This document shows, piece after piece, positions 15,306 to 17,820 of a stretch of 38,644 bases of DNA; position 1 is the stretch's first letter, and every line of letters begins with the position of its first letter. Below the pieces are notes generated by a model, which was given only the letters and a program-made list of their open reading frames with translations, was not told the DNA's origin and searched no databases. The stretch lies in the IMG/VR virus record IMGVR_UViG_2850756110_000011. The stretch is one strand, 5' to 3'. A program made the translations under genes and the position numbers. This stretch comes from a virus (lineage: Duplodnaviria; Heunggongvirae; Uroviricota; Caudoviricetes).

Positions 15306-16955
15306 ATGTTAGTCAAGAAAAATAAAAATTATAGTTTATATTTTTTAATTACAAATAATCAACAGATATCTGATTCTGGTAATTATATAAAAATAGTCCC
15401 ATCAAGAAGCGATTGGAATGATTTTGGATATTTGAGTAGAGTCGAAATATCTATTTTTAATAAAAAAGAGTGTAAGGATATAATTTCACTGAATGGTTAT
15501 ATTGGTTTTTTGAATTCAGAGGAGGAACGAAATGGAAAAGCAGAACTGATAAGGCGAGTGAAAAAAAAGGAAGAATCTAATTTAAAGGATGAGGGGTTTA
15601 ATGATTATTTTGTCATGCTTCAGGATATGAATAATTATCGAAGACTAGTAAGATTTTTTGGGGTGAATGAATCCAAATATATATTAAATTTCATTAATGA
15701 TGTTGTTTCTAAGAAAAGTGACGCTAGTGCAGAGAATTTGAGGAAAAAAGCAATCTCTTCTGATATCTTTAATAAATCTTTCATTAGAGAGTCTGAGTCG
15801 TATTTTACTTTCAAAAATGCAGGAACAGTTCTTTCCGGTATTCAATATGAGGAGTTGGGTAATTTATCACAGCACATCAAGATTAGCTATTCGAATAAAG
15901 TTAATGAAGAAGATGTATCTTATGTTTTTAATTTTGATCACGAGCATGATTTACCAAAAAGAATTTCCATAATTATAGGCGAGAATGGTGTAGGAAAAAG
16001 CCAAACGCTTAGAGAAATCGCATTGGCTGCGATTAAAGGAAAGGATAATTTGGTGGCTGTAGTTGATTCTAACGGTGTGAGCATTGAAGAACGAATTCAA
16101 ATTAGTAGGCTCATTGCTTTTTCTCCAACAAATGAAAGTAAGTGTTCATTTCCAACCGATAAAAGAATAAAATCATTGATATGGTACAAAAGATTGACTT
16201 TAAATCGTGAATCAAAATCCAAATTAAACTTGAATGATTTAATAGTGCAACTAGCGAGGAGTAACGACGCTATCGGCTATAATCAAAGGTGGAATATATT
16301 TGTTGATGCACTGAGTGTTCTAAATAGTAACAACGATTTAGTAATCAAATGTGGCGGTGAAAATTCACCATTTGTTAAATTAAATGAGCTTAATTCTCGA
16401 GGCGAAGAATCTAGACTATCATTATATTCTGAAATTATTCTCTCTGGCGAGCCTTTGAGGCTTATTGAAAATAAATGTTACCCTTTGAGTAGTGGGGAAA
16501 TATCGTTTATTAAGTTTTGTGTACAAGTTTGTTTGTATATTGAGAATGGGACTCTTCTATTAATAGATGAGCCAGAAACACATCTCCATCCTTCATTTAT
16601 TAATAAATTTATGGCATTGCTTGATAATTTATTAGAAAAGACAGGCTCTTCAGCTATCATAGCAACGCATTCGGTTTATCTTGTTCGGGAGGTTTTTAAG
16701 GAGCAAGTGACAATACTCAGAAGACGAGATGATGGGGTAATTGTTAGCGAAAAACCGAGATTGAGTACTTTTGGGGCGAATATAGGAAATATCTCATATT
16801 TTGTTTTCGGTGAGAGTGAACCAACTCAAATTTTAAATAAAGTAAAAAACAATATAATTGCAAAGAATATGTCTTGGGATGATGTTGAATCTAAATATAG
16901 CGAGGACTTATCACTTAATGTATTAACTGCGTTGAGAAATGAAATGGGCAATTGA
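15306..16955 (+). CDS. ABC/AAA_21-type ATPase (549 aa) with a roughly 215-aa N-terminal domain of unknown function; candidate defence protein (PtuA-like)
   Basis: Walker A GENGVGKS, signature-like LSSGE, Walker B/D-loop LLLIDEPETHLHP, H-loop IIATHS; gene is strongly AT-rich. Confidence 0.8.
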   Translation: MLVKKNKNYSLYFLITNNQQISDSGNYIKIVPSRSDWNDFGYLSRVEISIFNKKECKDIISLNGYIGFLNSEEERNGKAELIRRVKKKEESNLKDEGFNDYFVMLQDMNNYRRLVRFFGVNESKYILNFINDVVSKKSDASAENLRKKAISSDIFNKSFIRESESYFTFKNAGTVLSGIQYEELGNLSQHIKISYSNKVNEEDVSYVFNFDHEHDLPKRISIIIGENGVGKSQTLREIALAAIKGKDNLVAVVDSNGVSIEERIQISRLIAFSPTNESKCSFPTDKRIKSLIWYKRLTLNRESKSKLNLNDLIVQLARSNDAIGYNQRWNIFVDALSVLNSNNDLVIKCGGENSPFVKLNELNSRGEESRLSLYSEIILSGEPLRLIENKCYPLSSGEISFIKFCVQVCLYIENGTLLLIDEPETHLHPSFINKFMALLDNLLEKTGSSAIIATHSVYLVREVFKEQVTILRRRDDGVIVSEKPRLSTFGANIGNISYFVFGESEPTQILNKVKNNIIAKNMSWDDVESKYSEDLSLNVLTALRNEMGN

Positions 16956-17820
16956 AATGAATAAATTAAAAAGACCTGTTTTTAAAGATTATTCTGCATT
17001 TAAAAAACTATCTGCAAATAAGAGATTAAAACATCATTCTGTTCTGAATGGACAGGATACATTTATACTTAATGCATATAGATCGTACATAAAGAATAAA
17101 GGGTATCTTAATGTCAATTCTTGTGGCGTATTGAGTAACAATATTGCTGAAGCTTTGAGATATTATTATAACAATCCCGCAAAGTGTTTATCTATAATTG
17201 ATGATATAAGAGCAGCTAATTCTAACTCTCTATGTCCAATGTGTGGTTCAATGCATAGCGGGACTTTGGATCATGTTTTACCCAAGGAAAACTATCCAGA
17301 ATTTTCTTTATTCACTAAGAATTTGGTTCCTGCTTGCAAATGTAATACTTTCAAAAGTACTACTATAGCTAATTCTGCAGGCCATCGGATGCTGCATCCA
17401 TATTTTGATAATATATTAAAACAAAGATTAATATGTGCTAATTTTTCTAAATTAGGGCGAACACCTACAATTGATGTAAAAATCATAATTGACCCAATGT
17501 CACCAGAATATAACAATGTTAAGTATCATCTTGATAATGTTGTTATCAAGAATAATATTAAGGGGTATTTGTCTGAACAATGGGAGTCGTTTTACTTATA
17601 TCCTGAGCTTGTTATTAGAGGACTGAATAAGAGTCTTTCTACTTATAGCGATGTATATGAGTTGTTGACTCGCGAGTTGTTGCTGTTGGATGAAAAACAT
17701 AAAGGTAAAAATAATTGGAATTCGGTTTTTGTAGCTGGGTTAATTCGACCTGATGTGATTAGGTGGATACTCTGTGAATTACATTTAGGTAACAGAAGTC
17801 CAGACGGTCGTCTCATATGA
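16939..17820 (+). CDS. HNH-motif nuclease (293 aa); candidate defence effector (PtuB-like)
   Basis: CPMCGSMHSGTLDHVLPKENYPE...LVPACKCN; overlaps the ATPase stop by 17 nt (alternative start 16957); AT-rich. Confidence 0.75.
   Translation: MKWAIEMNKLKRPVFKDYSAFKKLSANKRLKHHSVLNGQDTFILNAYRSYIKNKGYLNVNSCGVLSNNIAEALRYYYNNPAKCLSIIDDIRAANSNSLCPMCGSMHSGTLDHVLPKENYPEFSLFTKNLVPACKCNTFKSTTIANSAGHRMLHPYFDNILKQRLICANFSKLGRTPTIDVKIIIDPMSPEYNNVKYHLDNVVIKNNIKGYLSEQWESFYLYPELVIRGLNKSLSTYSDVYELLTRELLLLDEKHKGKNNWNSVFVAGLIRPDVIRWILCELHLGNRSPDGRLI

Follow-up and report, generated by a model that had tools for sequence, protein, structure and literature searches.

Septu defence systems combine the ATPase PtuA with the HNH nuclease PtuB, and PtuAB-mediated defence requires both enzymatic activities (PMC12819146, PMC12673091, PMC13096335). 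[quoted passage not shown] The Septu system of solved structure (8EE4/8EE7) cuts DNA in response to falling ATP, tRNA-Tyr is cleaved by Septu EcB88 and Retron-Eco7, and the choice between DNA and tRNA as well as the triggering of PtuAB pairs are still considered an open question (PMC12673091). Within EcB88 PtuB, H75 and N91 are each essential for defence. The PADLOC catalogue additionally lists PDC-M01, an unpublished candidate system of which some instances are also called Septu (PMC11811056). In P2-like phages, the hotspot between gpA and gpQ harbors several systems that were shown to defend, and the P2 genes old and tin are located there (PMC9122126). Here, a two-gene cassette is described from the IMG/VR virus record IMGVR_UViG_2850756110_000011, a Caudoviricetes DNA stretch of 38,644 nucleotides (nt), the whole of which is referred to as the window. 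The genes at 15306-16955 and 16957-17820, both on the plus strand, probably make up a self-contained Septu-type module of two genes against phages, composed of a PtuA-like ATPase and a PtuB-like HNH nuclease. The family of the cassette is already catalogued as PDC-M01, and the cassette is best described as a putative divergent member of the Septu/PtuAB kind.

As in Septu, the ATPase gene is followed by an adjacent, co-oriented HNH gene, here at a distance of 1 nt, and the pair is found in defence islands and prophage hotspots. PDC-M01 is the best-matching PADLOC entry for both proteins, with model PDC-M01A hitting the ATPase at 3.2e-55 and PDC-M01B hitting the product of the adjacent nuclease gene at 1.2e-33, and nothing separates the cassette from this candidate system. 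The ATPase gene (15306..16955, plus strand, as are all cassette coordinates below) encodes 549 amino acids (aa) that comprise an N-terminal domain of ~185 aa, a head of the ATP-binding cassette (ABC) type and three terminal helices. Pfam assigns the protein to AAA_21 (60.8 bits, cutoff 27) and AAA_15 (35.3 bits, cutoff 32.1), the ABC ATPase type that is shared with Septu, and the ATPase is recognized by PtuA models: the PADLOC Septu model PtuA1 (PDLC00282) covers residues 32-535, nearly the full length, at 9.6e-32. An alignment of 39 ATPase homologues locates the Walker A motif GENGVGKS at residues 225-232 (15978..16001), with G225, N227, G228, G230, K231 and S232 invariant. The stretch from the ABC signature LSSGE (394-398) through the Walker B motif LLLIDEPE (417-424; D421, E422) at 16485..16577 and the H-loop residue H455 are likewise invariant. 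In comparison to Septu, the ATPase bears its catalytic glutamate after Walker B and uses LSSGE as its signature motif. The Walker A lysine, K231 here versus K43 in EcB88, lies far downstream because of the ~185-aa N-terminal domain, which is without a family match. The AlphaFold2 model of the ATPase, with a predicted local distance difference test (pLDDT) score of 80.5, presents an ABC head that lacks a long coiled coil, a linker of low confidence at residues 487-503 and three C-terminal helices (508-519, 524-531 and 537-548) that span residues 508-548 (16827..16949) and contain the invariant W524, S536, L540 and R544. By analogy with the solved complexes, these helices are proposed to correspond to the C-terminal domain with which PtuA clamps PtuB.

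The HNH nuclease (16957..17820; 287 aa from its conserved ATG, the numbering used throughout) carries its catalytic core at residues 93-151 (17233..17409), which agrees with the mid-protein position given in an earlier note on this DNA. The motifs named there (CPMC, LDH, NLVPAC and CKCN) are all found in the open reading frame (ORF), reading C93-P-M-C96, L-D105-H106, N122-LVPAC127-K-C129-N130 and L-H147-PYFD151 in the window, and their core residues, C93-x2-C96, D105-H106, N122, C127-x-C129-N130 and L146-H147-P148-Y149-x-D151, are invariant in 42 sequences; the register is supported by both hhalign and hmmsearch alignments. A profile search of 1.84 billion representatives retrieved 3966 family members at E<=1e-3 (2542 at E<=1e-10), nearly all of 273-300 aa and aligning end to end. 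A mid-protein HNH core is therefore the standard layout of a large family. This layout is also seen in PADLOC, where 27 of 27 PDC-M01B models place the HNH core near position 100-160 of profiles that are usually ~280 aa long. The ~150 aa behind the core, which the note had regarded as a C-terminal extension, turn out to be a region conserved throughout ~4000 cluster representatives, corresponding to standard PtuB architecture and not specific to one lineage. When the first 91 aa and the last 136 aa were scanned separately in PADLOC, nothing beyond PDC-M01B appeared among the matches listed, and Pfam yielded no significant family for the nuclease. In PHROGs, the exact nuclease family is phrog_18937, of unknown function, and a related family annotated as HNH endonuclease matches residues 80-262 at 2.7e-22. 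Outside the catalytic core, conservation is strongest in the last ~60 residues, with E240, D245, N252, W254, S256, F258, G261, W270 and R280 invariant.

An AlphaFold2 model of the nuclease, built from 42 sequences (mean pLDDT 84.8, predicted template modelling score 0.84), consists of N-terminal helices at residues 11-87, a beta-beta-alpha core at ~93-151, a beta hairpin at 159-176, helices at 185-219 and a final three-helix unit at 230-276 (helices 230-248, 254-262 and 265-276; pLDDT 94-98). The model thus contains the HNH fold for which the earlier note had proposed structure prediction as a check, and its structural neighbours in the PDB are PtuB effectors. These are, with the two values of each comparison in brackets, Septu PtuB 8ee7_C (9.8; 186), Retron-Eco7 PtuB 9kjx_F (9.1; 171), the retron I-A HNH protein 9n6b_F (8.1; 179) and the Ec83 HNH protein 9e8z_E (5.9; 162), and the whole-chain fold match is specific to PtuB proteins. 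As modelled, the nuclease has its helical C-terminal domain behind the HNH domain, the order that defines the PtuB fold, and both cassette proteins would end in short helical units as their Septu counterparts do. The terminal unit of the HNH protein (residues 230-276; 17644..17784), delimited by the model and its invariant residues, may accordingly be named by analogy with the C-terminal domain of Eco7 PtuB as the part that docks onto the ATPase. The suggestion that the C-terminal part binds the ATPase fits the solved PtuAB complexes, although for this cassette we infer it from similarity of fold. The HNH geometry is also shared with Septu (CxxC, then D/E-H, 16 residues, N), since the spacing from H to N is 16 in both the nuclease and EcB88 PtuB. 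Differences concern size: Septu PtuB proteins have 219-234 aa and their catalytic histidine at position 57-75, whereas the nuclease has 287 aa with the histidine at 106, and relative to EcB88 PtuB (219 aa) it is ~37 aa longer before the CxxC motif and ~35 aa longer after the core.

Several observations weigh against the assignment to the Septu type. TIGR02646, which describes the PtuB sequence family, scores the nuclease at 13.1 bits against a cutoff of 52.15, and Foldseek gave no PDB match for it. When the nuclease profile was aligned with hhalign to a canonical PtuB profile, a 26-member family grown from the EcB88 PtuB sequence (supplement of PMC13096335), the E-value was 0.016 over 111 columns; the register is correct, pairing CPMC with CAYC, DH with EH and N122 with N91. 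That the HNH subunit is homologous to canonical PtuB in sequence is not established, and the relationship is weak. In addition, PADLOC files the family of the cassette under the separate candidate PDC-M01, no experimental work on the PDC-M01 family was found in the literature, and no paper mentions the RefSeq accession of either protein. Sequence searches of the PDB, using a single sequence or a profile hidden Markov model (HMM) of the full nuclease or of its HNH core, retrieved no PtuB chain and gave only marginal HNH matches (4h9d, E 0.09-0.12; Cas9 HNH, 2.5); matches to S100-A9 and Spo0B were spurious. Conversely, canonical PtuB searched in PADLOC had no PDC-M01B model among the best 25 of 29 matches. 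The nuclease and canonical PtuB are separate sequence families that share fold and motif geometry. On the ATPase side, the NCBIfam equivalog for retron PtuA (NF041760) scores 41 bits against a cutoff of 500.

For a Septu-type module, the solved PtuAB complexes suggest the following sequence of events, all steps being drawn from them. The ATPase and the HNH protein would be produced from one transcript via coupled translation, and the final three helices of the HNH protein would be gripped by the C-terminal helices of ATPase dimers. This assembly may keep the nuclease under nucleotide regulation and inactive until infection, which would alter it in one of two ways: the ATPase senses a phage trigger, perhaps with its ~185-aa N-terminal domain, or the ATP state changes. 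The HNH site formed by D105/H106, N122 and N130, together with a predicted Cys4 zinc knuckle (C93/C96/C127/C129), would then cut nucleic acid, the substrate being either phage DNA or host tRNA, and cleavage would block phage replication, probably at the cost of the growth of the infected cell. A further proposal, possible but doubtful, is that PDC-M01 represents a mechanistically distinct PtuAB branch, in which the N-terminal ATPase domain senses a phage protein and the HNH subunit, enlarged by ~37 N-terminal residues and by a bigger helical region, alters substrate specificity or activation. If true, its route would match neither of the known ones, DNA cleavage gated by the ATP level and tRNA-Tyr cleavage gated by a retron. 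For the question of PtuAB substrates and triggers, a divergent pair whose proteins bear additional N-terminal domains is a useful comparison, and, if active, the cassette would add a large and structurally unsolved subfamily without a Pfam nuclease family to the Septu/PtuAB class.

The start of the nuclease gene determines how its coupling to the ATPase gene is to be described. An uninterrupted plus-strand ORF of 293 aa extends from 16939 to 17820, directly after the 549-aa ATPase ORF, and was correctly reported as such; the conserved start at 16957 shortens the product to 287 aa. In a 99.8%-identical Escherichia coli locus, the RefSeq gene has 864 nt and 287 aa and begins at this second ATG, 41 of 41 aligned homologues (283-301 aa) begin with M/L-N-K/R, and PADLOC profile alignments begin at residue 7-10 of the 293-aa form. 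These comparisons indicate ATG 16957, and not ATG 16939, as the conserved start. The ATPase stop codon TGA occupies 16953-16955, and a start at 16957 therefore leaves a 1-nt gap (TGAaATG); the 17-nt overlap previously described exists only in the longest-ORF reading, which depends on the non-conserved upstream ATG. In relatives, the ATPase/HNH junction is a 4-nt overlap in Stenotrophomonas (ATGA), Bradyrhizobium (GTGA) and a more distant metagenome member, an 8-nt overlap in Providencia and a 2-nt gap in Cupriavidus. Tight stop/start coupling to the upstream ATPase is a family trait across genera, in line with the coupled expression that had been suggested. Coupling does not imply a 1:1 complex, and the stoichiometric complex that had been read from it is not to be assumed, because the known PtuA:PtuB stoichiometries of solved relatives are 6:2, 4:2 or 2:1. 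For annotation, the consequences are modest: the start is to be set at 16957, the product named a PtuB-like HNH effector and the cassette flagged as defence cargo of the P2 gpA-gpQ hotspot.

Other described systems resemble the cassette in part. Among the retron type I-A effectors, the PtuAB proteins of Retron-Eco7/Ec78 and Ec83 (9KJX, 9N6B, 9E8Z) were compared; unlike these retrons, the cassette has no reverse transcriptase or non-coding RNA gene beside it, being flanked by a cos site with a DinI-like gene and by a portal gene, and its ATPase model lacks the coiled-coil insertion. An ABC-type ATPase coupled to a nuclease is also found in P2 old, Gabija GajA and PARIS AriAB; P2 old is encoded in the same gpA-gpQ hotspot as the cassette, and AriA and OLD are among the weaker matches of its ATPase. 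In contrast to the TOPRIM nucleases of OLD, Gabija and PARIS, the cassette nuclease is an HNH protein on a separate polypeptide, and the Pfam scan gave neither a TOPRIM nor a DUF4435 match.

The distribution of relatives bears on the alternatives to a Septu-type module. Of 5426 complete E. coli genomes, 3 carry the cassette, in each case with the annotation AAA family ATPase and HNH endonuclease, and deposited phage genomes lack it (50,697 phage records searched); database entries for the exact nuclease protein come mostly from Shigella, E. coli and Salmonella. The nuclease family is wide in Proteobacteria, with ~4000 representatives at 50% identity, and ~20 of the listed homologues of the two proteins lie on contigs of the same size. 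The order of ATPase then HNH gene is kept in Stenotrophomonas, Providencia, Bradyrhizobium, Cupriavidus and a metagenome contig, with varying neighbours: the Stenotrophomonas pair adjoins AbiJ and a Lit-type peptidase, the Cupriavidus pair SIR2-HerA and the metagenome pair type I restriction-modification (RM), Mrr and HigB genes. Relatives elsewhere sit in defence islands. This constancy of the pair makes it highly improbable that the nuclease is a free-standing HNH homing endonuclease, that is, a selfish mobile gene beside an unrelated ATPase. The HNH motif and the site in a phage genome, within a low-GC and horizontally acquired segment, would suit such a gene, but the ATPase is always directly upstream, abutting or overlapping, in five unrelated genera and outside phage settings as well, thousands of cluster representatives retain the complete 287-aa architecture, and the domain-library scans matched no intron, intein or homing-type DNA-binding module. 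With its obligate ATPase partner and PtuB-like structural neighbours, the nuclease is not a stand-alone HNH protein, and the homing-endonuclease identity, which the earlier note had named as an outcome that would overturn its own proposal, was rejected.

Equally improbable is a packaging-associated HNH protein of the HK97 gp74 type that aids cos cleavage by terminase. The nuclease gene lies within 2.6 kb of a site resembling phage P2 cosL and next to portal and terminase genes; P2, however, packages with gpM/gpP alone, and packaging HNH proteins measure ~100-120 aa. Homologues occur in chromosomal defence islands without packaging genes, the obligatory ABC ATPase partner would stay unexplained, and the occurrence of the cassette in so few E. 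coli genomes and in no deposited phage genome shows that the nuclease is not a core P2 function. The rarity of the cassette among P2-like prophages counts against this and the homing reading alike, and the protein was rejected as a packaging HNH. An alternative that deserves more weight, though still unlikely, is an ATP-dependent defence module of a restriction-like or toxin-antitoxin-like kind whose mechanism would not be that of Septu. No PtuAB-type clamp would then be involved; the ATPase might, for instance, scan DNA or translocate along it and so permit the HNH nuclease to cleave DNA that is foreign or modified. This reading draws on a partial match of the ATPase to TIGR04435 (restriction-system-associated AAA ATPase) at 1.3e-20, on the relative embedded among type I RM and Mrr genes, on the weak sequence similarity to canonical PtuA and PtuB and on the extra N-terminal domains in both proteins. 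The PtuB-specific fold match of the whole nuclease chain, the nearly end-to-end coverage of the ATPase by the PtuA1 HMM and the short three-helix units with which both proteins end, as PtuA and PtuB do, argue instead for the Septu-type module.

Within the window, the cassette is accessory cargo of a P2-like prophage and occupies the gpA-gpQ hotspot between cosL and the portal gene Q, as a 32% GC island, with values of 30-35%, inside prophage DNA of ~52-62% GC. Its left border is a cosL-like site at 15218..15244, which was spotted by eye and then aligned to P2 cosL: 22 of 27 positions equal the annotated P2 cosL and its flank. The site consists of the equivalent of the 19-nt cohesive end and the conserved TGCGCGCT, and is identical in an intact related prophage of E. 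coli UPEC-245U (L001); a scan with the P2 cos 19-mer that allowed up to 3 mismatches gave no match. With the cosL-like site upstream of the ATPase gene, the insertion falls between cos and gene Q, unlike P2 old and tin, which lie between A and cos, and after packaging the cassette would lie at the extreme left of the genome. In P2, only a 186 bp spacer is found at this position on the Q side of cos. Further to the left of the cassette lie a C-terminal remnant of the replication gene A, a small phrog_698 ORF and a DinI-like gene that precedes the cosL-like site. To the right, a strong hairpin is followed by portal gene Q, which is convergent, and by the genes of terminase (P), scaffold (O) and capsid (N). 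A scan for consensus promoters in the 70 bp upstream of the ATPase gene found none. The hairpin is formed by a 12-bp perfect inverted repeat (17830..17857) between the convergent HNH and portal genes, folds as RNA at -20.8 kcal/mol (z -4.85, with 0 of 200 shuffles folding equally well) and is kept in L001. Because neither strand has a U tract, it is not a canonical intrinsic terminator; a transcript-end hairpin is possible. P2 has its tQ terminator at the equivalent place.

The low-GC island seems to run into the 3' end of the portal gene (17928-18010), whose last ~25 codons are AT-rich, and this points to a recombination junction of the cargo within Q and not in the intergenic spacer. The portal gene itself (17928-18962, minus strand) contains a TAG nonsense codon at 18363-18365, where an intact E. 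coli prophage has AAG (Lys). This codon splits the 343-aa portal protein into ORFs of 199 and 133 aa, and the prophage therefore cannot make capsids. In the left 13.5 kb of the window (1-13500), insertion sequences are represented by two IS66-family and two IS110-family transposases and one IS3-type rve integrase, and a Rha/Ash phage regulator fragment is present as well. Of the replication gene A, only the C-terminal ~246 aa (13687-14427), downstream of an IS66 copy, are left. The prophage is a decayed P2-like remnant, typical of Shigella-like genomes. Despite this decay the cassette is intact, differing from that of the intact prophage by 5 nt and 1 aa. Behind the prophage, at 36026-38514, chromosomal genes resembling ybjL (Asp-Al_Ex/TrkA_C permease) and ybjM are found, which fits an integration site in the ybj region like that in E. 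coli UPEC-245U. In L001, a reverse-oriented DUF5677 gene (23371-24390) is located between a virion morphogenesis gene and the baseplate gene V, and this spot may be another cargo or moron position of P2-like phages.

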